From the IMG/VR virus record IMGVR_UViG_3300037042_004723, positions 32,001-96,000 of that record: DNA of 64,000 nt. One strand, given 5' to 3'. The DNA comes from a virus. Shown here one piece after another: positions 1,624 through 33,500 of this stretch (within the stretch, counting starts at the first letter, position 1; each line of letters starts with the position of its first letter). The notes beneath the pieces were generated by a model. The model had not been told where the DNA came from. It was given only the letters and a program-made list of their open reading frames with translations, and did not search any database. Both the position numbers and the translations under genes were made by a program.

Positions 1624-1693
1624 GGTCAGCGCGGCTGAGCCGCCATTCAGTCGGAGAAAACTCTAAGAGTTTTCTATGCGTATACGACGAGAG

Positions 1694-1722
1694 GACCTAA
1701 GGTAAAAGTTTTACCTTAGGTC
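1694..1722. repeat. Perfect 14-bp inverted repeat GACCTAAGGTAAAA-G-TTTTACCTTAGGTC
   Basis: Read directly; lies between convergent genes. Confidence 0.8.
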
Positions 1723-1739
1723 TGAGCCCCCTCTGGTTT

Positions 1740-2150
1740 CTAGAACTCCTGCTCGGTGGCGGGTGCCGGCACGGCGGTCAGGGTGGGCTTGACCTTGGCC
1801 GGCTTGGCGGGCTCCGTGTCCTTGACCAGCCGACGGAGGCGGTCCAGGGCGTTCTTCGTCAGCCGGTACTTGCCGTCACCAACCTCGCTCTCGTGGGTGA
1901 CCCACTGGCTACGAACCAGGCGGCGGAGGGTGTTGCGGACCCGTGAGCATCCGCGCGCCCGTCCGCCCTGAATCTTGTGCCAGTTCAGGTCATCCATGAT
2001 CTCCTGAATGGTCCGCACAGGGCGACCCTCGGTTGCCAGCGAGGTGACCAGGAGCTGCTCGTTCTTGGTTAGCTCGTTGAAGGTTAGCTGAAGTGCGCCA
2101 GCGCGCTGTCCTTGCGAGGACGTGAATTCTGTCTTGGTTTGGGTGCTCAT
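1740..2150 (-). CDS. Putative winged-helix DNA-binding protein
   Basis: wHTH-like pattern SRVRNTLRRLVRSQWV...GKYRLT; class I promoter. Confidence 0.65.
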   Translation of the reverse strand: MSTQTKTEFTSSQGQRAGALQLTFNELTKNEQLLVTSLATEGRPVRTIQEIMDDLNWHKIQGGRARGCSRVRNTLRRLVRSQWVTHESEVGDGKYRLTKNALDRLRRLVKDTEPAKPAKVKPTLTAVPAPATEQEF

Positions 2151-2266
2151 GCCATTACTACAACTGGCTGTGGATAAACTTTCGCGGAAAAAGGGCGCTC
2201 TTGCCTGGGGGCTAACTTTGATCGTCCGATCGTGAAAATCCCAACAGGCTCAGTTGTAGTAGCTAC

Positions 2267-2695
2267 ATGATGACTGCAACCACTGAGAAGCAAAGATCAA
2301 ACATGTTCTTTTCGTGCGGTCCGAACGAGGAGGACCGGCAGGTTGTGTCCTCCAAGTTCTACCGGGAGGATGAGTGCGGTCACTACTACAAGCTAACGGC
2401 CCCGCTGTTCGTGAACCTCAAGGACGGGGATGGCAAGCGGAAGCTGACGCAGGTGACCGGCCCCGTCGTGTTCACGGCGGATGGCTGTGATTTCTGGGGC
2501 GGGGAGAAGGCCAAGGGCTTTCGCTCCAAGGTGATCGAGAACCCGACCTACCGCTCGCTCATGGGCGCGGCGAAGTCATCGCAGGCGAAGACCAAGGACT
2601 ACCACCACTCGTTCATCGAGGGTGCCTACTTCAAGGGCTACGAGGAGATCGACGGCCGCCAGGTGATGATCCTCCAGATGGCGTTAGGTAGCTGA
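2267..2695 (+). CDS. Hypothetical protein
   Basis: Class I promoter with ATG at +6. Confidence 0.8.
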   Translation: MMTATTEKQRSNMFFSCGPNEEDRQVVSSKFYREDECGHYYKLTAPLFVNLKDGDGKRKLTQVTGPVVFTADGCDFWGGEKAKGFRSKVIENPTYRSLMGAAKSSQAKTKDYHHSFIEGAYFKGYEEIDGRQVMILQMALGS

Positions 2696-2726
2696 AAAAG
2701 CACCCTGGCCCAGTTGTAGTAGAGAC

Positions 2727-2819
2727 ATGAACCTCCAGGAAATTGTCCAAGCTCTTGCGCCGCTGGTTGATCACAAGAATCACGATGTGTGCGTCATGCC
2801 GCCCCGATCAGATCGGTGA
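2727..2819 (+). CDS. Putative 30-aa peptide, overlapping the XRE gene 3' end in antisense
   Basis: ATG 6 nt after the class I box at 2713. Confidence 0.35.
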   Translation: MNLQEIVQALAPLVDHKNHDVCVMPPRSDR

Positions 2820-2991
2820 CGCGACACCCGAGCGCCCTTGCGATCGACCGCAGGCTGCGGAGCGTCGGCTCGTGCGTCCCGTGGATCCACCCGTGAACTG
2901 TGCTGCGCGGACAGCCGCAGCGTCGTGCAATCTCCGCGTCTATGATGCCGGCGCGATCACGCGCTCGGACGATGCGTTGCGAGGTCGTCAT
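2794..2991 (-). CDS. XRE/Cro-CI family helix-turn-helix regulator
   Basis: AEIARRCGCPRSTVHGWIHGTHEPTLRSLRSIARALGC matches the HTH_3 pattern; start taken at MTTSQ. Confidence 0.85.
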   Translation of the reverse strand: MTTSQRIVRARDRAGIIDAEIARRCGCPRSTVHGWIHGTHEPTLRSLRSIARALGCRVTDLIGAA

Positions 2992-3130
2992 GTGGTTACC
3001 GTTCGCACAAAACGAACAGAATAACAAGAAGTAATATCGACGGGTTGGGCGGCGATTCCACCGGGGGCGTAATTGTCCTCCGGTGTTGTTGTCTTTTGAA
3101 AAGCCTAATGGATAAGGCTGCGTGCCAACG

Positions 3131-3180
3131 TTATCCACAGGGATCTGTTAACCACACGATTCCACAGGAAATTCACAGGG
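3131..3180 (+). promoter_or_regulatory. DnaA box TTATCCACA plus three degenerate CCACA(G/C)-like repeats; second perfect box at 2169-2177 (-)
   Basis: Exact match to the DnaA consensus in an A/T-richer intergenic region. Confidence 0.5.
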
Positions 3181-3288
3181 TGATTTTCTTGACCACCCTG
3201 ATTATCGCGTAGTACGAGCGTTGTCCGCGAAGTAAATGAAAAAAACGAGCTGCCCTGGTTGTAGTAGGGGTGCGGAAGGAGCCTTGAT

Positions 3289-3990
3289 ATGGATGAATCT
3301 ATGATGGCAGGCAAGGATGACACGCTCTCGTTCGAGGATATGAAGCCGGAGGAGCGTGCGATCCTCCAGGCGCTGCAAGCTGCTCATGATGCTGGGCAAA
3401 ACGTCCTGCGGATCGCTGAGATCATGTCGGCGAACGGCTGGGATGACGTGGACGACCACGAGTGTCCCGATGGCAACTGCTCGGTGTGCAGTGCTGCGTT
3501 GCGTCTTGGAAACAGCAAGGTTCGCAACAACTTGCGCCGCCTCATGCGGTGCGGACTGATCCACCGCCCGCTCGATGGCTCCTACGCCCTGACGCCTGAG
3601 CCCCGCCGAACCGCTCCACAGGCTGAGGCGGTTCCCAAGCTGTTGCGAATCAAGCGGAACCCCAGAGAACTGAATGTTTCCGAGGTCCGCATCCTGCGGG
3701 GCGTGGAGTACGGATCGCTCAATGTCAAGATGGTCGAGTCGGTCAAGAAGACGGACTGCACCATCTACAACGCCTGCTTGTCCCAGGCGATCTCCGGCAA
3801 GTGGGCGGGCTTCTCCTGCGCCGATTGCACGGCCTACGATGCGCCTACCCAGTTCCAGAGGGAGTGCGATGTGCTCGCCCTGCGTGCGCTCGATACCGCC
3901 GCAGAGATGGTCGAGGAGCACGGCAAGGTCAACCGCATCCGTGGCGTGAAGCCGGGCGCGGATGCCAAGCGGACCGAGGCCGGCGAGTAG
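3289..3990 (+). CDS. Putative winged-helix regulator with Cys clusters
   Basis: SKVRNNLRRLMRCGLI...DGSYALT, paralogous to 1740..2150; several Cys pairs; AAGGAG RBS. Confidence 0.7.
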   Translation: MDESMMAGKDDTLSFEDMKPEERAILQALQAAHDAGQNVLRIAEIMSANGWDDVDDHECPDGNCSVCSAALRLGNSKVRNNLRRLMRCGLIHRPLDGSYALTPEPRRTAPQAEAVPKLLRIKRNPRELNVSEVRILRGVEYGSLNVKMVESVKKTDCTIYNACLSQAISGKWAGFSCADCTAYDAPTQFQRECDVLALRALDTAAEMVEEHGKVNRIRGVKPGADAKRTEAGE

Positions 3991-4135
3991 GGGACGCGGC
4001 GCGCAAGCGCTTGCGCGGCTCGGAAAACTCTTAGAGTTTTCCGCTTCACCTAAAGAAAAAAGCCCCGCCGACCAGGGTTATGCTGAACACACGACGGAAT
4101 TGCCGCTATTCACCCTGGCCGGCGGGAGAAACAGT

Positions 4136-4543
4136 CTACCTGCAATCGATGGGCGTGAACATCCCTGATGCGTATCGGCCGCTCTGATACTCAACCGACC
4201 GCCTGGGGACGACGACGAGGCGCTCCTCGCCGAACTCGCCGTTCATGGTCCCGATATCGATGCAGTAGTCGTAGTCGTATGCCTTGGGTGCGCGGGTGCG
4301 CAGGAGGGAGAACCGGTCGGTCACATCCTCGATGAGATGCGGCGGGTCGCCCACGAGGGAGCGCAGGCACTGCTCGGCGATGAAGAATTGCTTGCTCGTC
4401 GTGGACATGGGCACGGACACGTAGGCCCCATCGACCTTCGCCACGTTGGCCTTCTCGTGGAACCGGAGGGTAGCGTCCGGGCGGTCCTCGATCAGCTGCT
4501 CGTACTGCTCGGCGGGAATCTTGACTTGGATGATTCTGAACAT
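4136..4543 (-). CDS. Hypothetical protein
   Basis: Class I promoter. Confidence 0.75.
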   Translation of the reverse strand: MFRIIQVKIPAEQYEQLIEDRPDATLRFHEKANVAKVDGAYVSVPMSTTSKQFFIAEQCLRSLVGDPPHLIEDVTDRFSLLRTRAPKAYDYDYCIDIGTMNGEFGEERLVVVPRRSVEYQSGRYASGMFTPIDCR

Positions 4544-4611
4544 GCCCTAACTACAACTGAGCCAACCGAAACTTTCTCGAAAAAATCAGCTTGCTCAGGT
4601 GTAGTATAGGT

Positions 4612-4992
4612 ATGACAAAGACAATCAATCAGCCAGAAGAGCACGTTCCGGCGGCTCAGATGTTCCGCAGGGCGCTCGAAAAGACGCTGGAGGCGCTCCA
4701 GGCCATGAAGGACGCGCACCACGCAACGATCAAGGCGCACGGGTTCAGCGCGAGTACGGAGGGCACGCTGTTCGATAGCGTGGTGCCCGTGGTCGATGTG
4801 ATCTCCACGATGCTCGCCAGGAACGTTGCCTTCGTTGAGGAGCAAGATAAGAAGTGGTTGGCGGCCCGTCGCATCGTTTCGCAGTTGGACGAGGACGCTC
4901 CGGCCGTGCCGCCGGGGCTGATCCTTCGCGATGGGGTGGAGTATGGATGTCACAATGATGCATGTCGAGATTGCTATGAGGGGGGAAGTTAA
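4612..4992 (+). CDS. Hypothetical protein
   Basis: ATG 6 nt after GGTGTAGT; divergent partner of 4136..4543. Confidence 0.75.
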   Translation: MTKTINQPEEHVPAAQMFRRALEKTLEALQAMKDAHHATIKAHGFSASTEGTLFDSVVPVVDVISTMLARNVAFVEEQDKKWLAARRIVSQLDEDAPAVPPGLILRDGVEYGCHNDACRDCYEGGS

Positions 4993-5099
4993 GTAGTCGG
5001 CGGGCTTCGGCCCAGTCCGAAGAGAGAAAACTCTTAGAGTTTTCCGGCCTGTCGGCGGGCTTCGGGCCGGCAGCGCGGGCGGGTGCTAGCGGGCGACCC

Positions 5100-5339
5100 T
5101 CACGCGGCCACCTTGCGCTCGATCAGCAGCGCCCACCTGATCGCTGTGACCTTCACCACGTCGTGCCCGTCGAGCGCGGCGCGGATGGCGGTGCGCTGGC
5201 GCGCGGCCTCCTCGGTGGTGCGCGCCGACACGATCCCCTCCGGGATCAGCAGCGTGATCGGCGCATCGGCAAGATCACCCGTCCAGGTCAGGCCGGTGTA
5301 GTCGCCGCCGACGACCGTGACCGTGACCGGCAGGCTCAC
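5100..5339 (-). CDS. Hypothetical protein
   Basis: GTG start overlapping the stop of 5336..6142. Confidence 0.6.
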   Translation of the reverse strand: MSLPVTVTVVGGDYTGLTWTGDLADAPITLLIPEGIVSARTTEEAARQRTAIRAALDGHDVVKVTAIRWALLIERKVAA

Positions 5340-6142
5340 GACGCCACCTCGACCAGCAGCGCGCGGCCGAGCGCGCTGGTCGCGGGGTCGTCGCCGTAGT
5401 CGTCCTCGATCCTGCCAGCCTCGACGAGGGCGTCGATCACGCCCCGGAGGTCGCCGTCCTCGTAGGCCACGACGGCGCGCTCCAGCGCCTCGACGCACCC
5501 GCGCGCGGCATCGAGGGCCGTCCTCGCGTACTCCACGGCCGACTCGTAGGCGGCGCGCTCCTCGTCCGACGCGCCGGCCGGGCACTCGGCGGCGACGATT
5601 TCCGCGTCGCGGAGGCCGTCTAGCTGCTCGATCGTACAGACGGGGTGAGTGACCTCTCCCTGGTCGCGCCCGTCCTCGCTGTACCAGCCGGCCGAGTAGC
5701 CGAGTCCGTCGTACCAGTCCTCCACGTCCTCGTGGTCCGTGGAGGCGTCCGGCCGGAGGACGACCAGCCGGTCCTGGTACTCCACGCTCACGCGGCGGAC
5801 CAGCGGTGCCGCGTACCGGATCGAGTGGGTGCCCGTGGCCGTGAGATCGATCTGGGACGACCAGTCCACCGACCAGCCCTCCGGGATCTCCGCCTCGACA
5901 GTCTCGGCGTCCTGCGCCCCGTAGACGACGCGCGGGCCGTTCGGGCCGTCGAGGGTGATCTGGATCTCGGTTGGCTCGATTGGCTCGGGTTCGTCGTTCT
6001 CGTCGTCCTCGCTGGAGTGGAGGTAGAGAACCTCGTTACGCTCGTCCGCCATCCGCTGCGCGATCCGGTGCGCGAGGTGGTCCACGAGTCCCGTGGTAAT
6101 CTGGTTGCCGTGGCCGTCGTCGATTGAGTAGGTCGTGTACAT
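5336..6142 (-). CDS. Acidic hypothetical protein
   Basis: Class I promoter; strong GC3 bias. Confidence 0.8.
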   Translation of the reverse strand: MYTTYSIDDGHGNQITTGLVDHLAHRIAQRMADERNEVLYLHSSEDDENDEPEPIEPTEIQITLDGPNGPRVVYGAQDAETVEAEIPEGWSVDWSSQIDLTATGTHSIRYAAPLVRRVSVEYQDRLVVLRPDASTDHEDVEDWYDGLGYSAGWYSEDGRDQGEVTHPVCTIEQLDGLRDAEIVAAECPAGASDEERAAYESAVEYARTALDAARGCVEALERAVVAYEDGDLRGVIDALVEAGRIEDDYGDDPATSALGRALLVEVAS

Positions 6143-6210
6143 GTTCTCACTACAACTAGGGTTGGTGGTTTTTTCGCGAAAAAGTGAGCCCCCACAGTTG
6201 TAGTGAAACC

Positions 6211-6465
6211 ATGAGCAAGACCATCAAGGAACTGGCGCAGGAAGCCCTGGACGTTCAGAATGCCTGCAACCTGACGGCGGTTATCCAGTCTTTCGCCCGC
6301 GCGATGATTGACCTGGGCGAGCACGTCAAGGGCACCGATGCCCGCAACTCTCACCCCGTCACGGTCCTCTGGGCGGACAAGGTGGCCCACCTAACGGGCA
6401 TCCAGGATATCGGCAACGACGCCACCATGAAGGCATACAACGCGGTCTACGCCTTGGCCGCCTGA
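6211..6465 (+). CDS. Hypothetical protein
   Basis: ATG 6 nt after a class I box. Confidence 0.8.
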   Translation: MSKTIKELAQEALDVQNACNLTAVIQSFARAMIDLGEHVKGTDARNSHPVTVLWADKVAHLTGIQDIGNDATMKAYNAVYALAA

Positions 6466-6593
6466 CAGCTTCGACGAGCTAGCCCGAGGCGCAAGCACGC
6501 TGCCAGCACGGGGCCGAGGGATAATGCAGCTGCTCGTCACCATGGTTCAGAAAACTCTAAGAGTTTTCCGACACACGGCTTACGCCGGGCTGG

Positions 6594-7238
6594 CTAGATG
6601 CTCACACCGTCGCCGCAGGTCTTGCAGTCCGGGTTGATGCCGCCATCCATCCCGCAGTCGTCGCACCCGTGGGTCTGGTCCCATAGCTCGTTGACTTCAT
6701 CCTCGACGTACTGAACCGCGCCATCCAGGTCCTTGGCCTCGCACGGCAGGTAGACCGGAGATGCGGTTACCTCCGCGTCAGTGCCCTCGACGATGCTCCC
6801 CATGAGAAACATCCCGTTGTGCGGCTCCATGATGGGCACGTCCACCGTATCGGTCAGCTCGAAGCTGGAACGCCCCTTGGCTTCCAGGGTGAGGAACTCC
6901 TGCATCCCGTTGTCCGTGACCGGCGGGACGATGGAGTCGAACGGGGGCCAAAAGTACTCCAGCACCGCACGGGGCACCTTGCTGTCGATCACCCGGTCAC
7001 CATTGAACGAGAACATCCCACGCTCCCAGATGCCGTCCACCTTGCGGAAGTAGCAGGTCCACGTCTCCTGACGCTTGCCGACCTGACGCAGACCGGGCGT
7101 GGTAATGCTCGCCCACGCTCCGCAGTCCGTATCCTTGTAGAGCCGGCGGCTCAGGCGCGCGTTGCTGTGCTCCAGGTTGTCGGGCTCAAAGTCCGCGTCG
7201 AAGTGCGCGAACAGATCCTCAATGGTCTTGATGCTCAT
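6594..7238 (-). CDS. Hypothetical protein with C-terminal Cys cluster
   Basis: Class I promoter; start at MSIKT. Confidence 0.8.
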   Translation of the reverse strand: MSIKTIEDLFAHFDADFEPDNLEHSNARLSRRLYKDTDCGAWASITTPGLRQVGKRQETWTCYFRKVDGIWERGMFSFNGDRVIDSKVPRAVLEYFWPPFDSIVPPVTDNGMQEFLTLEAKGRSSFELTDTVDVPIMEPHNGMFLMGSIVEGTDAEVTASPVYLPCEAKDLDGAVQYVEDEVNELWDQTHGCDDCGMDGGINPDCKTCGDGVSI

Positions 7239-7269
7239 GACTTTACTACACCTGCGAGGGTTGGAATTT

Positions 7270-7410: not shown

Positions 7411-7530
7411 GGTCCTACTACAACTGAGGTCGCCGGTTTTTTCTCGGACCATGGTGCAGGTACGGCCCGGAAAACTCTAAGAGTTTTCTCAACCGCCTCA
7501 CAGGCTGAAGCGGTTTCCCGCCTCAGCCTC

Positions 7531-7704: not shown

Positions 7705-7951
7705 GGCCTTACTACAACTGAGCTAGGCCAACTTTTCAGCGAAGTTCTCGGCCAGCCGCTCACGCTTGCGAGCCGCCCAGCCCTCAGCGATGGAGCACGA
7801 CTCGGCACACGCCGCAATTCCCCGAGTGGTTTCCTTTTTGCCCTGAGAAAACTCTTAGAGTTTTCCGAATCCGCCGTCAGTCGATGCCCTCCCAGGCGTC
7901 CGTTGCTCTGGCGGGCAAGATCGCCCGTGGTGCGCTGCGAGGTCGCGTATT

Positions 7952-8566: not shown

Positions 8567-8597
8567 GTTCTCACTACAACTGGGGTTGGATGTTTTT

Positions 8598-9040: not shown

Positions 9041-9205
9041 TTACTATTTGAAAATTGAAGTAGCGGTTCAGTCCGTCATAAAAGGCACCCTCCCCAGCCG
9101 GTACTCAGGCCATGTCATGGGAGCTACTGACCTTCAATTTTCTGTTTCAAGTGGAAAACTCTAAGAGTTTTCTCCCCGTCACCTGGCCCGAAGGCCGGGG
9201 CTGCA

Positions 9206-9736: not shown

Positions 9737-9857
9737 GGTAAGAATCATATACTAAGGGATTGTCAATGTCAACACCTAAGATGGCCATACTGAAGATCTT
9801 TTTGAGAAAACTCAATCAAAGCAATGCAAGAGCGGGCAACCCTTGCGTTACTTCTGA

Positions 9858-10918: not shown

Positions 10919-10989
10919 AGCAAGGCAAGGGGGGCTCGGCATCCCCCGAGCCACACACTCGGAAAACTCTAAGAGTTTTCTCTCCTGCC

Positions 10990-11575: not shown

Positions 11576-11647
11576 CCGGTCGGGCTACGGCCTTGGCCCG
11601 GTAAAACTCTAGACGCCCGGAGGGCGCAAGCGCCGACGCCAGCCGGC

Positions 11648-12221: not shown

Positions 12222-12311
12222 GGCTCGGGGCTACGGCCCACTGGAAGAAAACTCTAAGAGTTTTCTGAACCACCTCACAGGCTGAGGCGGTTGCCTGTCA
12301 GATTCCGACGG

Positions 12312-12995: not shown

Positions 12996-13202
12996 GGTTC
13001 GTCCCCCGGGAGATAAAACCGGGCTCTGTGACCGCCAGCGCAGCACAACGCTGGACTACTGGCGGCGTCGGTTCAGCGACGTAAACATCTGTGGGAGGCT
13101 GCACACGCCCACGGCGCTCGCTCCCTGGCGGTCAGGGGGCACTTTTCTTTTCGGCTCAAGAAAACTCTAAGAGTTTTCCGGTTGAGGGCCGAAGCCCAGC
13201 GG

Positions 13203-14179: not shown

Positions 14180-14483
14180 GACCTAACTACAACTGGGCTC
14201 CCTGGTATTTTCATGAAAAAACCAGCCCGCCTAGTTGTAGTAAGACCACAGGAACAAACAAGCCAACCGGCCAAAAAATAAACACCCCAAACCACAGGAA
14301 TCAATCAATGCTCATATAAGTGACGGTCAATCCCCTCTTGCTCTACCGTAAGCGTGGGGGTCCGAGAATATCTAAGGTAGCCGAGGGGGCTGATCTCCCC
14401 TCGGAGGAATCGCGTCGAGAGTTTTCCGAACGACACTGCATCGATTGCCTGAAAATCCCAGGTGGCCCAGTTGTAGTAGAACC

Positions 14484-14705: not shown

Positions 14706-14812
14706 GCGGCTGGCCTTCGGGCTCGCAGGCGTTGGAAAACTCCTATGGTTATTCGGCCTAGAGTTTTCCGCCCTGGGCGGCCGGGGTCGGGCCCGGCCGC
14801 CTCCTGTGGGGG

Positions 14813-15581: not shown

Positions 15582-15585
15582 ACTA

Positions 15586-15995: not shown

Positions 15996-16077
15996 CCAAG
16001 AAGGAGGAGGGGGCGCGCAAGCGCTTGCGTCGATAGAAAACTCTTAGAGTTTTCCGTTAAGGGCCTTAGCCCGAGGG

Positions 16078-16640: not shown

Positions 16641-16721
16641 CCGCAGCGGAAAACTCTAAGAGTTTTCTAAGCCGCGCTGGGCTTGGTAGCCCGTCACCCT
16701 TGGTAGGGCTTGCGCTGTCGC

Positions 16722-17679: not shown

Positions 17680-17796
17680 GCGGACCGGCGGGGTTCGTTG
17701 CCTCGCAGGCTTGGAAAACTCTGGCCCATAGGGAGTTTTCTTGGCCGCGCCCGCCGGGCGGCCAAGGCTACGGCTTGTCCTTTACCTCGGCCACGG

Positions 17797-18486: not shown

Positions 18487-18551
18487 GGCTTTGCGTGTAG
18501 AAGAAAACTCTTAGAGTTTTCTTAACCGCACCCGCTTGCGCGGGCTCGGGC

Positions 18552-19460: not shown

Positions 19461-19596
19461 GGCGTAACTACAACTGAGCTTATCTGGATTTTCATGTAAT
19501 CGACAGACGCCCGCGCCGCTTGATGCGTGACGGCCCTGAACATAGAAAACTCTTAGAGTTTTCCGATGCCATCACGGCGCGGTGCGCCTTGGGCCC

Positions 19597-20120: not shown

Positions 20121-20289
20121 TTTGCTACTACACCTGGGCTTGCTCAGATTTTCAGGCAATCGACAGACGCCTGATCAGCGCACTTCTGACAGAGAAAACT
20201 CTAAGAGTTTTCCGACGCACGGCAGTAACGGGGAGCCCGCCGCCCCCCCCCTTCCCGGCCGCACTCGCCGGGTGGGCTAGCCGTTATTT

Positions 20290-20499: not shown

Positions 20500-20637
20500 G
20501 TACCTACTACAACTGGGCTAGCCTGGATTTTCAGGCAATCGACCGAGCGTATTTCTGACACTCGGGACGCCCACGGCCAGAGAAAACTCTAAGAGTTTTC
20601 TTAACCCCGAAGGGCGGCGAGCCCGGCCCGGCCCCGT

Positions 20638-21159: not shown

Positions 21160-21371
21160 TCATCAGTTGTAGCCTATCATGAGCCGATAGTCAAGGTATC
21201 TTTTGTCATGGTATGCAGATACTTGGCACGATCATTGACAATGCATTGGTATGACCGGAAAACTCTACGGCGCAAGCGTAAGAGTTTTCCTGGTGCGCCA
21301 AGCGGCGCGGTGCGCCAAGCGGGGCCAGAACGCGCCACGCCAACCCCCGTGGGGGCCGCGCCGGGCGTGGC

Positions 21372-21662: not shown

Positions 21663-21802
21663 CTGTATCCACTACAACTGTGCTTTCCGGGATTTTCGTA
21701 CAATCGACATCGCGCCCCGGCAGCTCGAAATCTGACAGGCGACCGAGAAAACTCTTAGAGTTTTCCTGGCCCGGCAAGAGCCGGGGCCCCCGGCCCCGCC
21801 TC

Positions 21803-22306: not shown

Positions 22307-22466
22307 GGGATTGACCTTAAGCTATATCTTATCTCAATGCAACAACAATCGACAGGGATCTGCACTTATTTTTCCGGGCCAGCTTCCGGTGGCTTACGGA
22401 AAACTCTAAACGTCTGACAGTGCATGGAGTTTTCCGGTTGCCCGGTGGCGCGGTGCGCCCGGTGGC

Positions 22467-22700: not shown

Positions 22701-22871
22701 CTGTATCCACTACAACTGTGCTCGGCGGGATTTTCAGGCAATCGACATCGCGTTCAGGCCCGTGAGCTGGTCAGGCCCGTGAGCTGGTCAGGCCGGAAAA
22801 CTCTAATTAGGTTAGAGCTATTAGAGTTTTCTTGACCACAACGGTCGGCGCGGACCGTCGTGGTCTTGCGC

Positions 22872-23315: not shown

Positions 23316-23490
23316 TGATAGACAGTACACCTATTGACGTGCATTGTCAAGGTATCTTTTGCCTATCAATGTCGAATGTCTCGCAATGGGCGATAGAAAA
23401 CTCTAATGGGCTTTAGGCTCCCAATGATTACAGAGTTTTCTATTGGACAGTTGGCGGGCTCGGTGTCCCGCTGTCCTTTAGAACTGTCCC

Positions 23491-23844: not shown

Positions 23845-23993
23845 TCCCCTTTATCGCACGGACCGAGGTGCATTGTCAAGCATGTAATGCCATGCAATGC
23901 AGATAGTTGTACGGAAAACTCTAAGCTCTGACAGTGGGGTGGAGTTTTCTGATGCGCTTGCGGCGCGCGGTCTGCGGCCTGCCCGGCGGGGCC

Positions 23994-24278: not shown

Positions 24279-24419
24279 GTACAGACCTTAGCAGGTCTTG
24301 CGTGTATTGTCAATCGCATAATGCCATTCAATGCAGATAGTTAGGCGGAAAACTCTAACCTATAAGCTGTTAAAGGGAGTTTTCTTAGCGTGCGTCGGCC
24401 GGGCGAACCCGGCGGGCTG

Positions 24420-24641: not shown

Positions 24642-24843
24642 TTAATGACCTTAGCAGGTGATGGTTGCATTGTCAATGCATTGAATGCGTGACAATGATG
24701 AATTGCTTCGAGTGGCGGCGTATCCTGCCCCTACTACAATTGTGCTCGCCTGAATTTTCATCATATCAATGCAGGGGAAAACTCTAAGGTCTGACAGCAG
24801 GTAGAGTTTTCTTAACGCCTGACCGGGCGAACCCGGCGGGGCC

Positions 24844-25337: not shown

Positions 25338-25465
25338 GCTATCACTACAACTGTGCTCGGTCGGATTTTCAGGTGATTTTATCGAAGACCAGGCCGGGCT
25401 AGACCAGGCCGGAAAACTCTTAGAGTTTTCTTGATGCAGCATCGGCGCGGTGCGCCGGGCCCCGC

Positions 25466-25852: not shown

Positions 25853-26030
25853 TCATCAGTTGTAGCATGGTTACCTTGACAATGCAACAACTATCTACTA
25901 ACAATCGACTGTCAAGATCTGCGGATCCTGTTAGGAAAACTCGGGTTGGCGCAACGCAGTGCGTGGCCATATGAGAGTTTTCCAAACCCACGGGCGAGAT
26001 CGGGCGGGGTGCCCGGTCGCCCCGGTCGGG

Positions 26031-26588: not shown

Positions 26589-26777
26589 TCATCAGTTGTA
26601 GCCTATCAAGAGCCGATAGTCAAGGTATCTTTTGCCATGCAATGCAGATAGTTTGCACTGTCCTTAACAATGCATTAACCTGACCGGAAAACTCTAAACC
26701 ACCATTGAGGGCACATGGCCTTTAGAGTTTTCTCCATGGCGGAAAAATCTGACGCGGTGCGCCAGCCCGCCGGGCTG

Positions 26778-27089: not shown

Positions 27090-27268
27090 TCATCAGTTGT
27101 AGCCTATCAAGAGCCGATAGTCAATGTATCTTTTGCCTTGCTATGCAGATAGTTGGCACGATCCTTGACAATGCACTGGTCAGACCGGAAAACTCTGTTT
27201 AACCATTAAGGCACATGGCCTTTAGAGTTTTCTCCCAGCACTGGCGGCCCCGGCGGCGGGCCGGGGGG

Positions 27269-27613: not shown

Positions 27614-27791
27614 CCATCAGTTGTAGCCTATCAAGAGCCGATAGTCAAGGTATCTTTTGCCATGCAATACAGATAGTTGGCACACATCTTGACAATGCAT
27701 TGGTCAGACCGGAAAACTCTATTTAGTCATTAAGCATTAGCTTAAGTGGAGTTTTCCTGTCTGGAGTCGGCGCGGTGCGCCGGCCCGGATC

Positions 27792-28170: not shown

Positions 28171-28347
28171 TGAGAACCATCATGGACTATCATCGCCCGA
28201 TTGTCAAGGTATCTTTTGCCATGCAATGCAGATAGTTTGCGCGTACCTGACAATGCATTTACTTTAACCGGAAAACTCCATTAATGGCCTGGTAATGGAG
28301 TTTTCTTGACAGGCCTAGTCGGCGCCGGAGGGCGCCCGGCCCTGAGG

Positions 28348-28923
28348 CTAGATCTTGTCGGCCAGAGCGGCCGTGATCGAGCGGTAGCGGCGCGTCGTGG
28401 TCGCGGGTGACCAGCCCAAGAGGGCGCCGGCCTCGCACTGGCCCATGCCCCCGGCCATCGCATCCAGGAACGTCTGCGAGTCAGCGTCAAGCGCGAGCAT
28501 GGCATCGGCCAGAGCCTTGCGCTCGAAGTAGCGCACCATGTCAGCGGCGCCATCCACGCCCACGAGCGTATCGACGAGCGCGACCTCGGAGTCATCGTCG
28601 CCGAGGTTCGTCTCGGAGTCGTGGTTACGGTTCGCGTGAGCCTTGCGCCAGTTGCGCGCAGCGTTCGCAGCGATGCGGCACGCCCACGAGACGATCGACC
28701 CCTTCGACCAGTCGAACGACTCGGCGTGCTCCATCATGCTCACGAGCGCATCCTGCACAACGTCAGACGTTGCGCTCGTCTCGCCGATGGTACGCTCGAC
28801 GGTGCGCGCCATGGTCTTGAACAGGTCGGGGTTGCCGATCTGGCTCATGACGTCCAAGCGAGTCTCGCTCGACGCGCCCGTGGAAGTGAAACCGTTGTGA
28901 CCGATGTTCGTGTGATTCACCAT
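28348..28923 (-). CDS. ECF-type sigma-70 family factor (paralog 5)
   Basis: SDVVQDALVSMMEHAESFDWSKGSIVSWACRIAANAARNWRK is a typical ECF region 2; QCEAGALLGWSPATTTRR is region 4. Confidence 0.9.
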   Translation of the reverse strand: MVNHTNIGHNGFTSTGASSETRLDVMSQIGNPDLFKTMARTVERTIGETSATSDVVQDALVSMMEHAESFDWSKGSIVSWACRIAANAARNWRKAHANRNHDSETNLGDDDSEVALVDTLVGVDGAADMVRYFERKALADAMLALDADSQTFLDAMAGGMGQCEAGALLGWSPATTTRRYRSITAALADKI

Positions 28924-29169
28924 ACATAGCATGGCTATCTTTACAATGATACATCAATCGACTAACAAATCACTGTCAAGATCTGTGGATCCTGTTAGGA
29001 AAACTCTATGGTGCGAGGCCATATGGAGTTTTCCGCTTAAGCCAGTTGGCCCGGCGGGGCCGGTCGGGCTACTTCTTGAAGGTGGCCGTAGCCAGATCGA
29101 GCGTGATGCACTCGCCGGTCGCCGGATCTACGAAGTAGACCGGGGCCGTGGGGCGCTTGGCCCGCTTCA

Positions 29170-29481
29170 CTAGCGGCCCCTCCGGCCGCGCACGTAGTTG
29201 AGTTCCTCCATGGCGGCATCGGCTCCGACCCCGGCCGCGAACGCCGCGCCGAAAACCTCGGCATCCTCCTCGGCGTAGGACTCGGACGAGCGGACCGTGC
29301 GGCCCGTGGTCAGGCGACCCGAGCGGGCCAGGGGGCGGCCGTCCGGGGCCACCTCGGCGAGCTTGCGCAGGGTCTTGAGGGAGACGGCGTTACCCTCGGA
29401 GGGGGCGCACGTGGTGACCTTCCCGCCCTTCGCGAGGAAGGCGGCGAGGGCGGCGGCGGCGGACTCGGTCTTGTTCAGCAT
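29170..29481 (-). CDS. Hypothetical protein
   Basis: Class II unit. Confidence 0.75.
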   Translation of the reverse strand: MLNKTESAAAALAAFLAKGGKVTTCAPSEGNAVSLKTLRKLAEVAPDGRPLARSGRLTTGRTVRSSESYAEEDAEVFGAAFAAGVGADAAMEELNYVRGRRGR

Positions 29482-29657
29482 TCACCATACATAGCATGGC
29501 TATCTTGACAATGCAACAACTATCTAACAACAATCGACTGTCAAGATCTGTGGATCCTGTTAGTGATAAGCGGAAAACTCGCTTTAGCTTTTAAGCGGGG
29601 CTTAGGCGGAGTTTTCCCGATGCCCCGGTGGCGGGATCCGCCCCCCGACCCGGTCGC

Positions 29658-29930
29658 CTACCGGAAGGCGGCGGGGTGCGGGTAGGTCTGGCGGAACCCG
29701 TACTCGACCTCCCGGAGGTCATCCTCGGCGACCTCGAAGGCCGCAAAGGCCGCGTCCATGGCATCGGACGCCTCACCCTCGCCGTCCGTCCCGTTCGCCT
29801 TGCGCATGGCCTTGCAGGCCGCTTCGAGCGCACGGGCCGCGCCGTCCCGCAGGTCCAGGAAGCGGGCAACCGTGGCCGGGTCGGCCACGAACATCTCAAC
29901 CGCGCGCTGGGCATTCCGTTTGTTCAGCAT
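29658..29930 (-). CDS. Hypothetical coiled-coil protein
   Basis: TTGACT-N17-TAAGGT promoter. Confidence 0.75.
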   Translation of the reverse strand: MLNKRNAQRAVEMFVADPATVARFLDLRDGAARALEAACKAMRKANGTDGEGEASDAMDAAFAAFEVAEDDLREVEYGFRQTYPHPAAFR

Positions 29931-30118
29931 GCCTAACCTTAACCCAGGACTTAAGCTAAGTCAATCACCGAATGCGACGCAATGACGATTTATTTAGGTG
30001 GCCTTTAACAAGAAAACTCCCGCGCAAGCGCTTGCGTTGGAGTTTTCCTGATGTGCTAGCGGCCCCGGCGGGGGCGGGGCGCTTTTCCGGGCTAGCGGCC
30101 CCGGCGGGGGCGAGGGAG

Positions 30119-30532
30119 CTAGCGATCCCAGCGACCGCCGATCCGGGGGCCGTCGTCGCCGGACTGCCACGGGAGCGCGCGGGGCGGGAGCGATGCCGCT
30201 CGGACCCGCTCGGCCTCAATCTCGCGCCACTGGCGCGCCTCGCGCGCTTCGTCCGTCTCGCCCGTGTCCCACCACTCCTTCTCCGGCGGGGCAGCCGCTA
30301 GGGCTGCTGCCTTAGCAGCTTCGCGCGCGTCCCGCTCGGCGGAGAGCCGCACGTCGATCGCGTCCCGCTCGGCGCGGATCGCGGCGAGCTTGCGCTCCTT
30401 GATCGTCATGGGAGGCGCCTCCACAGTGAAGCTCGCCGGAGCCTCCGGCTCCAACGCGAGCGGGGCCACGGGCCCCACGGGGGCCGGGGAGAGGGAAGCG
30501 AGCGCTGCAAAGGACTTGAAGGTCTTGCTCAT
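30119..30532 (-). CDS. Hypothetical Ala/Arg-rich protein
   Basis: Class II promoter. Confidence 0.75.
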   Translation of the reverse strand: MSKTFKSFAALASLSPAPVGPVAPLALEPEAPASFTVEAPPMTIKERKLAAIRAERDAIDVRLSAERDAREAAKAAALAAAPPEKEWWDTGETDEAREARQWREIEAERVRAASLPPRALPWQSGDDGPRIGGRWDR

Positions 30533-30728
30533 GTCAATGAATGTAGCCTATCAAGAGCCCATTGTCAAGGTATCCTTTGCCATGCAATGCAGATAGTTTG
30601 CGCGTACCTGACAATGCATTAACCTGACCGGAAAACTCTATTTAACCATTAAGCATTAGCTTAAAAGGAGTTTTCCTGTCTGGGGTCGGCGTGGCCGACT
30701 AGCGCTAGTCGGCCACGCTGCCGGGGCG

Positions 30729-31055
30729 CTACACCCGGTAGAAGCCCCGGCACCCAACCACGGCCCCACCCTCGTCGCGCACGAGCGCGCCGGGGGTCAG
30801 CAGGTCCGCAGTGGACCGGCCCGCCTCGCGCGCGGCGCTCGCCGCGAGCGCGCTCACGACGAGCCAAACCCCGCTCTGGGGCGCGGGGAGACCGACCGGC
30901 TCCCCGCGCGTGACGCGCGACGTCGGGACGCCACAGACGTCCTCCGTGGTCTCGGTTGTCTCGGTGGCACGGGCGACCCCCTCCGAGGGGAGGGTGCGGG
31001 TGGAGCCGTCCGCGAGGACGACCGCGACGATGTGCGGGGTGAGGTTCTTGAGCAT
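30729..31055 (-). CDS. Hypothetical phage protein (NLTPH...LVRD..G.V.GC.G motif)
   Basis: Class II promoter places the start at MLKNLTPH. Confidence 0.75.
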   Translation of the reverse strand: MLKNLTPHIVAVVLADGSTRTLPSEGVARATETTETTEDVCGVPTSRVTRGEPVGLPAPQSGVWLVVSALAASAAREAGRSTADLLTPGALVRDEGGAVVGCRGFYRV

Positions 31056-31221
31056 GATAAGACCATAGCAGTTCATCACTGCATTGTCAATGTATATTTT
31101 GCCATGCAATGGGGAATATTTAACCGACCTTGACAACTGCCTTAGTGCAACGAGAAAACTCCCTTTAACAGGCCATTAATAGAGTTTTCCGCTTGGCCGG
31201 TTAGCCCGGCGGGCCGGTCGG

Positions 31222-31632
31222 CTACTCGTAGCGGACGGTGAGGCTCGCCGCGTAGGGAGCGGGCGAGAATACGAGGGTGAGCGCGGTAACGTCGCACGTG
31301 GGGACGTCGCGGGGGATCTTGGCGAGCAGTAGCTCGGCAACGTGGCGTGCGAGTCTCTCGCACGAGAGCGCGGTGCCACGCTCGGCGATCCGGTCCATGT
31401 ACAGGCCCACCATGGCCTGGTCGAACAGGAAGCCCCGGTCGTCCAGGCGCGGCGCGCACGTCACGGTCAGGTCCCACCGGACCGGGATCGCCTTGCGGCC
31501 CCCGTCGACGTTCACAAGGGCCCCAGCGGGGCCACAGTGGTTCGGGCCCGAGACAACGAAATTCGAGATCCCCGCGCGCTGCAGCGTGAAGCTGGCGAGC
31601 TTGAGCGCGGGGCGGGCGGTGTGATTCAGCAT
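31222..31632 (-). CDS. Possible T-fold (QueD-like) protein
   Basis: LDDRGFLFD and SCERLA resemble QueD motifs, but the metal-binding His residues are absent. Confidence 0.45.
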   Translation of the reverse strand: MLNHTARPALKLASFTLQRAGISNFVVSGPNHCGPAGALVNVDGGRKAIPVRWDLTVTCAPRLDDRGFLFDQAMVGLYMDRIAERGTALSCERLARHVAELLLAKIPRDVPTCDVTALTLVFSPAPYAASLTVRYE

Positions 31633-31821
31633 TCATCAGTGATAGCACAGCTACCTTGACAATGATACAACAATCGAACAACAATCGACTGTCAAGGTAA
31701 GGCAATCCTGTCAGGAAAACTCTATGGTGCAAGGCCCTTAATGGAGTTTTCCGGTTAGGCCAGTGGCCCGGCGGGGCCGGGGGCTAGCGGTTGGCCGGTC
31801 GGGCCGCTTACCCGGCGGGGG

Positions 31822-32082
31822 CTAGCGGTCCCAGCGACCCGCGATTCTGGGGCCGTGACCCTCGTCGGGAGCGGTCGCGCGGGCCCGTGCGGCGCGTACC
31901 TTTTCCTCTTCGACGGCGAGCCGCGCCGCCGTCTCCTCCGCCGACTCGGCGGCCCTTGCCGCCTCCCAGGCAGCGCGCCCCGCGCGATACATCTCCCTGA
32001 TCTCCCGCGCTTCTGCGCGGAGGCGCTCGTTGCGCGAGAGGGTGGCGGTCGCGGGGGGGGTGGTCGCGGTGTTCTTGAGCAT
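31822..32082 (-). CDS. Hypothetical Ala/Arg-rich protein
   Basis: Class II unit. Confidence 0.75.
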   Translation of the reverse strand: MLKNTATTPPATATLSRNERLRAEAREIREMYRAGRAAWEAARAAESAEETAARLAVEEEKVRAARARATAPDEGHGPRIAGRWDR

Positions 32083-32277
32083 TCATCAGTTGTAGCCTAT
32101 CGAGAGCCCATTGTCAAGGTATCCTTTTCCATGCAATGCAGATAGTTTGCACGGTCTTTGACAATGCATTTGACAGACCGGAAAACTCTGTTTAGTCATT
32201 AAGCATTAGCTTAAGTGGAGTTTTCCTGACCACCTTTGGCAAAAAAGGCGCCCCGGTGAGGGGGCGCACTCCTTTCT

Positions 32278-32808
32278 TCAGGCTGCCATCGCAGCGGTGA
32301 TCGTGGCGATCGATCGCTGTTTGGCACGAGTGACGCCAGCGTTTGACGTACGGCAGGCGATGGCTACGACCTTCGCCGGGGTACCGGCGAGCAGCATCTC
32401 AAGCACGCGACGGTCGGACGCTTCGATAGACGCCATGGCAAGGGCCAGGCGCGCTTCATCGGCGCCGGACTTGCTCGGCATAGGGGCCGCAACGCTCTCG
32501 ACGTTGCGAGCGTAGGACGTGAACCGTGGGGCTTCGAAACCGGTCTTGATCACGTTGATCGTGCAACGGGTCACGACCTTCCGGATGAAGCGGGCAAGGC
32601 CCGTCATGCCCGAGCGGTTAAAGTCCCGCAGGGCCACGATGAGGCGGATCGTAGCGGTCGAGATCAGATCATCGATCATGCCCCACACCCGGGTGTCGCT
32701 GTCCTCGATCACTCCCATCACGGCAAGCTCGATCAGGTTCGCGTGCTCCACGACAACGGTGTTGATCTCAGAGGCGGTTAGCTTGGGTTGGTTCGTCATC
32801 TGTTCCAA
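32278..32808 (-). CDS. Divergent ECF-type sigma-70 family factor (paralog 6)
   Basis: DDLISTATIRL..LRDFNRSG..LARF..VVTRCTIN..K; C-terminal HTH PAKVVAIACRTSNAGVTRAKQR. Confidence 0.65.
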   Translation of the reverse strand: MEQMTNQPKLTASEINTVVVEHANLIELAVMGVIEDSDTRVWGMIDDLISTATIRLIVALRDFNRSGMTGLARFIRKVVTRCTINVIKTGFEAPRFTSYARNVESVAAPMPSKSGADEARLALAMASIEASDRRVLEMLLAGTPAKVVAIACRTSNAGVTRAKQRSIATITAAMAA

Positions 32809-33500
32809 CCACCCTACACCCGTTGGCCGTGCATTGTCAAGGTATCATTGCCATGCAATGCAGTGCAGATCCCTGGCGAATGACGCTTGACAATCGCACT
32901 GATACATGGTATCGTGGTCTGTTACGTCTAGATGCGTCACACGTCGATCAAGCTGCGAAGCATACCACGTATTCGATGAATTGTCAATCACGCAATGCAT
33001 CGAAGTTTCAGCGAAAGCGCCGGATAGCACCACGACCGAGCACGCATTGTCAAGCACAATCGACATGGAGATCTTGGCACAATCCTTGACAATGCACTGG
33101 TCAGACCGGAAAGCTCTATTTAACCATATGCACTGTGGCCATAAGGAGTTTTCTTGACCCCTTGGGCAAGTGATTACAATGGCTTGGGCTGTCAGAACAA
33201 AAGCTCTCCGCGCCCTAGGCTTTTATAACCCTATAGAGCGTGCCGACCCATTTCCATATTCGTCCTATGAAAACAGCCAATATGGGTTATGAAGTGCATT
33301 GTCAATTGAACAATGCTGTCGGGACGCGCACTTGCGCATCTGTCCACTTGCGTTGATGTCCATCTCGTGGAACGCAAGTGGTATTGAGGGGTCCTGAGGT
33401 TGAGATCCACTTGCCGAGGTCATTGGGGGCCAATAGGTAAATCGAAAATTTGGGAGGTATTTTTTCACCTCCGGATTGACAGTTCTGATAATAGGTAACA

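Follow-up and report, generated by a model that had tools for sequence, protein, structure and literature searches.

A conserved inverted repeat as a probable boundary signal of early transcription units in an uncultured T4-type phage

Introduction

The closest known counterparts of the element described here are the REP elements of bacteria, the PeSL cassettes of T4-type phages and the stoperators of mycobacteriophages. REP elements and BIMEs are multi-copy short palindromes that lie at the 3' ends of genes and between convergent genes, and are absent from divergent promoter gaps; roles in termination and in the stability of mRNA have been proposed for them. PeSLs (promoter-early stem-loops) are regulatory cassettes of T4-type phages (Arbiol et al. 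2010, PMC2839356; Comeau et al. 2014, PMC4122927). Their stem-loops, which serve as terminators or attenuators, are hairpins with G/C runs and no fixed sequence, and are coupled to a promoter of the sigma-70 type and a Shine-Dalgarno site (PMC2839356, PMC4122927). The stoperators of cluster A mycobacteriophages (L5 gp71) are asymmetric 13-bp sites, distributed genome-wide and bound by the monomeric two-domain immunity repressor of these temperate phages, and the bound protein halts the elongating polymerase (PMC9283540).

As with PeSLs, the present element belongs to a phage of the T4 superfamily, where about 50 intergenic modules of stem-loop plus promoter are mostly gathered in an ORFan-rich early region, near-identical modules precede unrelated genes, and the rearrangements seen among relatives break in these regulatory regions. 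It differs from them in having a fixed sequence of 8+8 nt, which is also found by itself in convergent gaps that have no promoter and does not vary between lineages whose proteins are 40–75% identical. Single half-sites with a defined orientation occur as well, and the genes served are leaderless and transcribed with phage sigma factors. With stoperators it has in common that a single short word, well conserved, recurs dozens of times in short intergenic gaps and is oriented with transcription (26:5 for the half-sites); here, however, the sites are mostly inverted pairs with a variable loop and occur only in the early region of a phage of the T4 type. The position rule is that of REP elements, but these reside in chromosomes, have degenerate sequences and owe their spread to RAYT (Y1) transposases, whereas the arms of our element are invariant and this phage encodes no Y1 transposase. 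The bacterial genomes searched gave only single chance matches, so the element is phage-specific.

Results

The window, that is, the whole 64,000-nt stretch of DNA analysed, comes from an uncultured, large T4-type phage with a gp23-like capsid and a gp20-like portal. It contains 39 exact GAAAACTC-N(3-32)-GAGTTTTC pairs between positions 1656 and 32225, and one further pair with a single mismatch, which is the sole imperfect copy of this genome (Table 1). By form, 18 pairs are compact (3-nt spacer, TAA or TTA) and 22 extended (spacer of 11–32 nt), and for the compact form the 18 copies observed in the window compare with 0.00 in 100 shuffles. Counting both strands, there are 84 occurrences of the 8-mer arm, where 1.57 would be expected. 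In the whole genome (197,279 bp) there are 45 pairs, all within 20.7–65.2 kb; the five additional ones lie upstream of the window, at genome 20.7–30.7 kb, and none was found after 33.2 kb of the window through the rest of the genome. Our recount thus reproduces the 18 compact and 22 extended copies of a first-pass annotation, as well as its spacer range of 3 to 32 nt, its almost invariant arms and its lack of copies after 33.2 kb. Its statement that all copies are intergenic also agrees with our own gene calls, crude as these are, on which every pair in the window falls between genes.

The placement of the sites was evaluated in seven sequences, which represent at least five lineages. Full sites were present in 36 of 42 convergent gaps, in 52 of 148 tandem gaps, and in none of 29 short divergent gaps. 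In tandem gaps the site has a stop-codon hairpin on one side and the next promoter on the other, and lone half-sites, which are preceded by stable hairpins, are in the sense orientation in 26 cases and antisense in five. Many tandem gaps with a promoter have no site, so the element is dispensable at some gene ends. Of the 39 inter-site units, 38 consist of minus-strand genes followed by plus-strand genes, i.e., divergent genes bounded by sites, so that nearly every convergent junction is a site. The description of these units as single-gene cassettes, made in the first-pass annotation, applies to 21 of the 39, while the others hold two to five genes. A conserved hub of some 1 kb, non-coding and situated to the left of the early region, carries three full sites and two half-sites without annotated gene ends. 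This hub is kept in all lineages, adjoins the gene of a ribbon-helix-helix regulator, and is closer in appearance to a cluster of operators or an origin than to terminators.

Table 1. Coordinates of the sites, half-sites and candidate reader genes in the window
Position	Strand	Feature	Spacer	Gap or context	
690..714	+	two lone half-sites GAGTTTTC (690-697, 707-714)		sense to plus-strand genes, upstream of class A promoter	
1656..1674	.	compact site	TAA	convergent	
1740..2150	-	winged-helix protein, 136 aa		found in every lineage examined; candidate reader of double-stranded DNA	
3289..3990	+	paralogous winged-helix protein, 233 aa		C-terminal domain rich in Cys; candidate reader	
4023..4041	.	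compact site	TTA	convergent	
5026..5044	.	compact site	TTA	convergent	
6550..6568	.	compact site	TAA	convergent	
7470..7488	.	compact site		tandem minus-strand	
7847..7865	.	compact site		tandem minus-strand	
9154..9172	.	compact site		tandem minus-strand	
9806..9813	-	lone half-site, GAGTTTTC on minus (sense) strand		tandem minus	
10962..10980	.	compact site		tandem minus-strand	
11576..11647	.	gap holding a decayed look-alike, GTAAAACTCTAGAC		only site-free convergent gap of window	
12247..12265	.	compact site		convergent	
13160..13178	.	compact site		convergent	
14419..14426	+	lone half-site GAGTTTTC		after hairpin, upstream of class A promoter	
14735..14768	.	extended site	18	convergent	
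16036..16054	.	compact site		tandem plus-strand; GCGCAAGCGCTTGCG hairpin before it	
16649..16667	.	compact site		convergent	
17714..17740	.	extended site	11	convergent	
18503..18521	.	compact site		convergent	
19545..19563	.	compact site		tandem minus, then class A promoter	
20194..20212	.	compact site		tandem minus, then class A promoter	
20582..20600	.	compact site		tandem minus, then class A promoter	
21258..21289	.	extended site	16	GC hairpin inside spacer	
21747..21765	.	compact site		tandem minus	
22399..22434	.	extended site	20		
22796..22831	.	extended site	20		
23396..23440	.	extended site	29		
23914..23949	.	extended site	20		
24348..24384	.	extended site	21		
24777..24811	.	extended site	19		
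25412..25430	.	compact site		tandem minus	
25935..25982	.	extended site	32		
26687..26732	.	extended site	30	begins repeated regulatory module family 1	
27188..27232	.	extended site	29	module family 1	
27712..27756	.	extended site	29	module family 1	
28271..28305	.	extended site	19	13-bp stem possible	
28999..29033	.	extended site	19	module family 2	
29573..29616	.	extended site	28	module family 2	
30012..30047	.	extended site	20	CGCAAGCGCTTGCG hairpin within arms; resembles classical bidirectional terminator	
30631..30675	.	extended site	29		
31154..31189	.	extended site	20		
31715..31751	.	extended site	21	module family 2	
32181..32225	.	extended site	29	module family 1; canonical hairpin + T6 terminator before it	
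33109..33153	.	last site, left arm GAAAGCTC	29		

The same arms were found in at least 10 related metagenomic phage lineages, and they are all-or-none, with 129 perfect pairs against three with one mismatch in 20 sequences. The first-pass proposal that the site is read sequence-specifically is supported by this count and by the constancy of the arms at diverged orthologous junctions, where the loop varies (TAA, TAT, TA) and the flanks have diverged. The gene-end hairpins near orthologous sites preserve their pairing by compensatory substitutions, and the arms show no change at all. Some orthologous sites are compact in one lineage and extended in another, so that the element does not require constant spacing on double-stranded DNA. 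Between lineages with identical arms, protein identity is only 40–75% and the promoter -10 boxes differ, which implies that whatever reads the arms evolves more slowly than the pairs of phage sigma factor and promoter.

Like a rho-independent bidirectional terminator, the element is a palindrome of A-tract, stem and T-tract at gene ends, and the copy at 30012 has a GC hairpin inside its arms. The compact hairpins, however, are weak (-4.0 to -6.4 kcal/mol), with a stem made only of CTC/GAG and A:U pairs and no T-run after it, and are therefore not classical intrinsic terminators; their primary sequence is also invariant. Classical terminators are not enriched in the early region (16 found, 15.2 expected), while in the late region ordinary terminators, made of a hairpin and a T-run, are in use, one of them after the capsid gene. 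Since a canonical terminator lies directly upstream of the site at 32181, that site would be at best redundant as a stop. Regulatory modules of 107–147 nt, composed of site plus promoter, recur before unrelated genes at 84–91% identity.

Discussion

Because the same inverted repeat ends nearly every early unit downstream, in this phage and in its relatives, it is most likely a boundary signal and not an integron-like shuffling site. Our interpretation, which the pattern of the sequences makes probable but by no means assured, is that it acts as a sequence-read stop signal of the early and middle transcription units, with transcription or the RNA ending at the site. Among the three options of the first-pass annotation, its termination, roadblock or RNA 3'-end signal best fits the positions of the sites; a chromosome-organising role is possible, with no support from our analysis.

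It is unlikely that the approximately 45 sites are instead operators by which a global phage regulator switches or organises the early region, comparable with the KorB/KorA sites of IncP plasmids or the phiC31 repressor sites. Their location at gene ends would then arise because all other space is taken up by promoters and coding sequence, and the binder would be a phage winged-helix, ribbon-helix-helix or sigma-region-4-like protein. Perfect 18–19-bp palindromes with half-site centres 10–11 bp apart are typical of dimeric winged-helix binders, yet spacers of 2–32 nt without helical phasing are contrary to a dimer. Two conserved MarR/ArsR-like winged-helix proteins are indeed encoded among the sites, but their recognition helix is conserved over a family of 163 clusters, one member of which comes from a phage contig without any site. 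The gene-free hub beside the ribbon-helix-helix gene also points to operators; the beta-strand of the ribbon-helix-helix protein, however, differs in one lineage despite unchanged arms. The restriction of the sites to the early region and the resemblance of the arm GAAAACTC to the -35 box GAAAATCC of about 56 phage promoters would suit a regulator of promoters, but the distance from site to promoter is not fixed, sites occupy promoter-free convergent gaps and are missing from the short divergent promoter gaps, and the orientation bias of the half-sites relative to transcription is unexpected for a plain operator.

We see very little likelihood that the sites shuffle gene units, whether cut by an Xer/Fim-like recombinase in a shufflon-like or attC-like manner, perhaps on the folded hairpin, or used passively as short identical repeats for homologous exchange, as proposed for PeSLs. 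The first-pass annotation, which had raised the attC-like option, saw no recombinase, which is true of the window alone; elsewhere in the genome, a 199-aa Xer/Fim-like tyrosine recombinase is encoded at genome 21790–22389, 10 kb upstream of the window and beside the first site cluster. It comprises the catalytic domain only, with an intact R..HxxR..H..Y pattern, is 69% identical to that of a second lineage and among the best conserved early proteins, and its gene lies at one end of the site region in two lineages. It is, however, missing from a 175-kb relative and from syntenic fragments, both with perfect sites, and scores 28 bits on the integron-integrase model, whose cut-off is 265. A compact site could be parsed as GGAAAAC-TCTAAGA-GTTTTCC, with 7-bp arms and a 6–7-bp centre, which may resemble a minimal core site. 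The conserved outer boxes, variable-length hairpin and one-per-unit long array recall attC, but the integrase type differs, compact sites have one 8-bp stem and lack the two-box stem of attC, and the units carry their own promoters, often hold divergent genes and are of mixed orientation, unlike promoterless, co-oriented integron cassettes. The order of genes is scrambled from one lineage to the next, an entire unit flanked by two sites is inverted, and the recurring modules also speak for exchange; nevertheless, the breakpoints that could be resolved, which the first-pass annotation suggested looking for at the site, fall at promoters or stop codons and leave the site where it was, and orthologous sites have kept the same junction since the lineages split. 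Just as improbable, in our estimate, is an RNA processing or stability signal, in which read-through transcripts would be cut by an endoribonuclease at or near the A/U hairpin and trimmed by an exonuclease to the protective GC hairpin upstream. A stable gene-specific hairpin always lies just upstream of the word, the word is sense-oriented, and all three one-mismatch variants are transitions that retain a G-U pair on one strand. The sequence AG↓UUU fits the preference of RNase E, but the RNase E sites known so far are degenerate, unlike an all-or-none 8-mer, and the cut motif would be buried in the stem of full sites. Moreover, with a promoter for each unit, polycistronic RNA would hardly need processing, and no candidate phage nuclease for such processing was found.

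Returning to the boundary signal, the working word would be GAGTTTTC(C) on the sense strand, 3' of a gene-specific GC-rich hairpin, and its presence on both strands as GAAAACTC-loop-GAGTTTTC would make the signal bidirectional. The two arms could pair, within either the transcript or the non-template DNA strand, and this would account for the coexistence of loops of 2 to 32 nt with arms that never change. We give about equal weight to a hairpin and U-tract, in the RNA or the non-template strand, acting on RNA polymerase, perhaps with a factor, and to a phage DNA-binding roadblock protein, for which the conserved winged-helix pair (1740–2150 and 3289–3990) are candidates, their binding being putative. 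Each mode leaves a gap, since a hairpin that only pairs needs no invariant arms and a dimeric binder does not tolerate spacers of 2–32 nt. In either case, the signal would separate single-gene or divergent-pair units, each with its own leaderless promoter, and would stop convergent genes from reading into one another.

Copy number and conservation of the site

The site is an inverted repeat of two 8-nt arms, GAAAACTC...GAGTTTTC, with either a 3-nt spacer (compact form, TAA or TTA) or, in the window, a spacer of 11–32 nt (extended form). The array of about 40 copies described by the first-pass annotation was recovered as 39 exact pairs at 1656–32225 and one pair with a single mismatch at 33109, and its division into 18 compact and 22 extended copies held as well. 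In shuffled sequence, the compact form appeared 0.00 times, against 18 in the window, and the 8-mer arm 1.57 times, against 84. Scanning the whole genome raised the count to 45 pairs, all at genome 20.7–65.2 kb, among proteins without a family match, and over 20 sequences, relatives included, there are 129 perfect pairs. By crude codon-usage gene calls, all sites are intergenic. The arms are nearly invariant, as had been noted: beside the 129 perfect pairs stand only three with one mismatch, and nothing intermediate.

Where orthologous junctions were compared, in five to seven lineages, the arms were identical, while the loop varied in sequence and length (TAA, TAT, TA, AG, TT) and the flanks could not be aligned between lineages. 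The gene-end hairpins adjoining the sites retained their pairing through compensatory changes. Because these hairpins need structure alone, and the arms stay identical, the element appears to be read by sequence, in agreement with the earlier proposal of sequence-specific recognition. The −10 box of the repeated promoter differs among lineages (TTGTAGTA, GGTGTTTAC, GGTGTACTA) whereas the arms do not, which suggests that the reader evolves more slowly than the phage sigma–promoter pairs. A single exact word that recurs at the boundaries of genes, about 130 times across a dozen phages that have diverged, implies a specific reader.

A scan of 185,579 species returned only single chance matches in bacterial genomes and no host repeat. 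The core GAAAACTC-NNN-GAGTTTTC was also found, repeated, within a GC-rich 45-bp palindrome (cgacggccgaaa...tttcggccgtcg) in three contigs of 28–39% G+C from brine and other metagenomes (L109, L050, and L068), probably as an unrelated repeat, and single matches occur in Nanohaloarchaeota genomes.

The phage and its relatives

The window spans bases 32001–96000 of a single virus contig of 197,279 bp (57% G+C) that encodes a gp23-like major head protein, a prohead protease, a T4-type portal with inteins, a tail sheath, and a RecA/UvsX-like protein. These genes, together with a capsid protein whose identity to those of GenBank phages does not exceed 37%, indicate that this uncultured phage belongs to the T4 superfamily as a distant member; among GenBank phages there was no nucleotide match and no annotated relative. 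Three IMG/VR contigs (115–200 kb) each carry 15–17 pairs of the same arms within 21–24 kb, and a metagenome scan yielded at least eight further lineages with two or more copies, all of 52–61% G+C and all with homologues of the early genes of the window phage. Protein identity between relatives and window is 40–75%, occasionally up to about 90%.

The HNH endonuclease gene marks the point at which the minus-strand array switches to plus-strand genes. Farther on lies a gene for a Kelch-repeat beta-propeller protein, unusual in a phage, with two same-strand ORFans after it. Rfam models matched only tRNAs across the window. The coordinates of these and other features are collected in the table.

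Features of the window, of other genome stretches (L002, L004, and L005), and of two relatives (L111 and L081); window positions unless stated otherwise
Feature	Position	Strand	Remarks
Gene-free hub	L002:345-1174 = genome 20345-21174		About 1 kb; left edge of early region
Ribbon-helix-helix gene	L002:1329-1793 = genome 21329-21793	+	First gene right of hub; profile matches AvtR, ParG
Tyrosine recombinase	L002:1790-2389 = genome 21790-22389	-	199 aa; catalytic domain only; Xer-like, length of Fim invertases
Class A promoters (examples)	2211-2266, 15086-15141
Second palindrome (examples)	4002-4015, 16016-16029, 30023-30036
Six ECF-like sigma-factor paralogs	9206-9748, 20638-21159, 21803-22306, 26031-26588, 28348-28923, 32278-32799	- (all)
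Most conserved early protein	17098-17679
HNH endonuclease gene	33501-34469	+	322 aa; directly after last site
Kelch-repeat protein gene	46176-49406	-	1076 aa
Five tRNA genes	58889-59040 and 62918-63606	-	Arg-CCT, Arg-TCT, Leu-TAG, Leu-TAA, Val-TAC
Inteins in portal, RecA/UvsX-like protein, and a third protein	L005:6551-11689, L004:1435-3471, L004:10419-12293		HNH or LAGLIDADG domains
Extended site in relative L111	L111:213-257
Extended site in relative L081	L081:265-302

Position of the sites relative to genes

Across seven sequences, a full site was present in 36 of the 42 convergent gaps and 52 of the 148 tandem gaps, and in none of the 29 short divergent gaps, which consist of two back-to-back promoters. 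In tandem gaps the site always lies between the next promoter and the gene-specific GC hairpin that follows the stop codon; in convergent gaps it stands alone, without a promoter. The early region consists of small units. Thirty-eight of the 39 inter-site units of the window have the form of minus-strand genes followed by plus-strand genes, and the remaining one contains a decayed site look-alike. The units had been described as single-gene cassettes, nearly all with their own promoter. Nearly every gene does have its own leaderless promoter, but 18 of the 39 units hold two to five genes, and these multi-gene units are often divergent.

Lone arms (half-sites; working word GAGUUUUC(C) on the sense strand) also occur in the tandem gaps of the seven sequences, where GAGTTTTC was found 26 times in sense and five times in antisense orientation. 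They come after stable hairpins, at a typical distance of about 9 nt in one relative. This orientation, together with the distribution among gaps, assigns the element to the downstream ends of transcription units. The best explanation, which we hold with somewhat more confidence than doubt, is that the element is read by its sequence and acts in both directions as a boundary or stop for early transcription units, a function suggested by its position.

The gene-free hub contains three full sites and two half-sites, as well as a purine-rich stretch in which gggctccaagaatagggg occurs three times. Its layout is kept in all lineages, with the ribbon-helix-helix gene adjoining; possible roles for the hub are those of an origin, a control region, or a small-RNA locus. 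A second recurring palindrome, CGCAAGCGCTTGCG (12 exact copies, 21 with at most two mismatches), is scattered genome-wide through the early and late regions, often no more than 10 nt from a site and in two cases enclosed by the arms. Mismatches are tolerated in it, in contrast to the main element.

Promoters and sigma factors of the early region

Class A promoters (tGAAAAtcc-N9-CAGTTGTAGTA-N5-6-ATG) number about 56 copies, at window 1–25400 and genome 23.6–57.4 kb. They lack a ribosome-binding site, so the genes behind them are leaderless; the genes of the late region have Shine-Dalgarno sites. In this genome, a short divergent gap of 68–70 nt is made up of two class A promoters facing away from each other. 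The arms were considered as −35 boxes and rejected, since C occupies position 6 in every arm and in only two of the 56 promoters, and no conserved −10 box follows the arms.

A second leaderless class, TTGACA(ATGCA)-17-TAnnnT-6-ATG, occupies the minus strand at 21160–33500 and looks, by sequence, like a host-sigma promoter. It precedes, among others, five of the six ECF-like sigma paralogs, two of which scored above the Pfam Sigma70_r2 cut-off, the others being weaker and matching the ECF model over their full length. The six paralogs and two promoter classes suggest a cascade from host sigma to phage sigma. With about 56 leaderless promoters, six phage sigma-like factors, and two promoter tiers, the transcription programme is unusual for a T4-type phage.

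Immediately following the site, a near-palindrome, TGACCAATGCATTGTCAA, often stands ahead of promoters of the second class and could be a separate operator. In L111, the spacer of an extended site holds the box TTGTAGTA 9 nt after the left arm, in exact class A geometry with the left arm in place of the −35 box, and the spacer of an extended site in L081 contains GCATTGTCAA.

Termination and recombination

Terminators of bacteria and phages are normally recognised by shape, not by sequence. The stable GC stem and U-run of a Rho-independent terminator are absent from the site: its compact core folds at −4.0 to −6.4 kcal/mol, as weak as had been judged before, and has U's inside the stem and none after it. 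The 3′-end position is what the two have in common. Classical hairpin-plus-T-run sites showed no excess in window 1–20000 (16 found, 15.2 expected), and the late region has textbook terminators, for instance directly after the capsid gene. The element is not a classical terminator.

Recombination was weighed as well, the first-pass annotation having likened the sites to attC. Integrons are marked by an IntI-type integrase of about 320 aa with an extra IntI domain and by an adjoining attI and common promoter; attC sites have two paired boxes (R″/R′, L″/L′), a central spacer, extrahelical bases, and at least 57 nt, and the cassettes are promoterless, in one orientation, and read from one promoter. 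In contrast, the compact site is a single 8-bp stem of 18–19 nt, and the units of the window are mostly self-promoted, many of them multi-gene and often divergent. That no recombinase is visible holds for the window itself, but the tyrosine recombinase of the table lies 10 kb upstream. Its best matches are XerD/XerC/XerA (75–82 bits), and on the integron-integrase model, whose cut-off is 265 bits, it scored 28. Of the three long relatives, two have the gene in their genomes, and the protein is 69% identical in one relative. Perfect sites persist without it in a 175-kb relative and in syntenic fragments; the relatives G003 and G001 lack it. Searches for a serine recombinase and a Y1 transposase found neither.

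Gene order is strongly shuffled between lineages. Cassette exchange with breakpoints at the site had been named as something to look for. The indels and insertions resolved against the relatives L057 and G003, at a resolution limited by their distance, have their ends at promoters or stop codons and do not displace the sites. Duplicated bidirectional promoter modules lie on both sides of one insertion, and one small gene was removed between its promoter and stop codon, leaving the site in place. Regulatory modules of site plus promoter (107–147 nt) recur at 84–91% identity before unrelated genes; since the modules recur and the junctions lie elsewhere, the palindrome travels with the modules but is not the observed breakpoint. 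With neither an IntI-type integrase, attC architecture, a promoterless array, nor in-site junctions, the attC comparison fails, and recombination is a highly improbable function of the sites beside that of a boundary element.

Reading of the word and candidate readers

The word could be read as a hairpin, formed either by RNA or by the non-template strand. Of the two arms, GAAAACTC invariably comes first and GAGTTTTC second, loop lengths of 2–32 nt show no helical phasing (centre-to-centre distances of 10–11, 18–20, 24, 26–30, and 36–40 bp do not fit 10.5-bp steps), and orthologous sites switch between compact and extended forms. Self-pairing of the spacers is slightly above expectation (mean z −0.9 for 23 sites, copies being related by duplication), and, as a weak point, the three one-mismatch variants are all transitions, each leaving a G-U pair on one of the strands. 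RNA processing as the function of the sites is, like recombination, very unlikely, and ranks behind the boundary element.

Alternatively, a protein could bind the double-stranded DNA, with which the all-or-none conservation of the arms, the 18–19-bp palindrome with half-site centres 10–11 bp apart, the functional-looking half-sites, and the conserved hub beside a ribbon-helix-helix gene are consistent. The sites might then be operators, which we consider unlikely next to a boundary function. Two paralogous MarR/ArsR-like winged-helix proteins are kept in every lineage examined, but their conserved helix is a hallmark of the whole family (163 clusters) and one distant member is encoded on a contig that has no sites, so the pair are candidates only. 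For the most conserved early protein, the structure prediction (pLDDT 36) was too low for use. The ribbon-helix-helix protein ends in ASKIFTF, a C-terminus that does not vary among four lineages and resembles a docking peptide, with a sliding clamp as a possible partner. A search for a T7-type polymerase, run without a positive control, found none.

Comparison with known systems

The likeness to PeSL lies in the T4-type phage (gp23-like capsid, prohead protease, gp20-like portal) and in modules within a variable, ORFan-rich early region. PeSL joins a stem-loop to a strong sigma-70-like early promoter and then a Shine-Dalgarno site. Here a promoter follows the site in tandem gaps and none does in convergent gaps; the promoters are leaderless, without a ribosome-binding site, and mostly of a phage-specific class. 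Recombination between PeSL modules is proposed to create indels and mini-circles. The recurrence of site-plus-promoter modules before unrelated genes agrees with the PeSL picture (Arbiol et al., PMC2839356; Comeau et al., PMC4122927). Comparing the relatives aids this idea, as it separates the repeats that broke, the promoters, from the conserved element that stayed.

Stoperators are likewise many copies of one intergenic word oriented with transcription, as are the half-sites, but full sites carry the word on both strands; and where a phage repressor binds the stoperator word and blocks elongation, here there are candidates only (winged-helix and ribbon-helix-helix). The hallmark of REP sequences, a RAYT (Y1 transposase, PF01797), had no match in the genome, although control genomes did match. 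The element is thus akin to PeSL cassettes, stoperators, and REP-like palindromes, and set apart from them by its exact arms, free loop, and oriented half-sites.

A bolder reading, which we put forward tentatively and think rather doubtful, is that this clade has its own termination or insulation code, in which an invariant word of 8–9 nt and a dedicated, slow-evolving factor end every early unit in both directions. The factor could be encoded by the phage, or host RNA polymerase could supply it through a conserved surface put to unusual use; the word might be read in the non-template strand, in an RNA hairpin, or in double-stranded DNA by the conserved winged-helix pair, and the signal might be switched on or off globally during infection. 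Vaccinia U5NU, the T7 class II signal, and the L5 stoperators come closest to such a code, and not one of them takes this form. Should the word stop polymerase, synthetic biology would gain a compact (19-nt), bidirectional, and possibly switchable insulator. If the clade does use such a code, a bacterial-type polymerase would have a terminator system that is sequence-specific.
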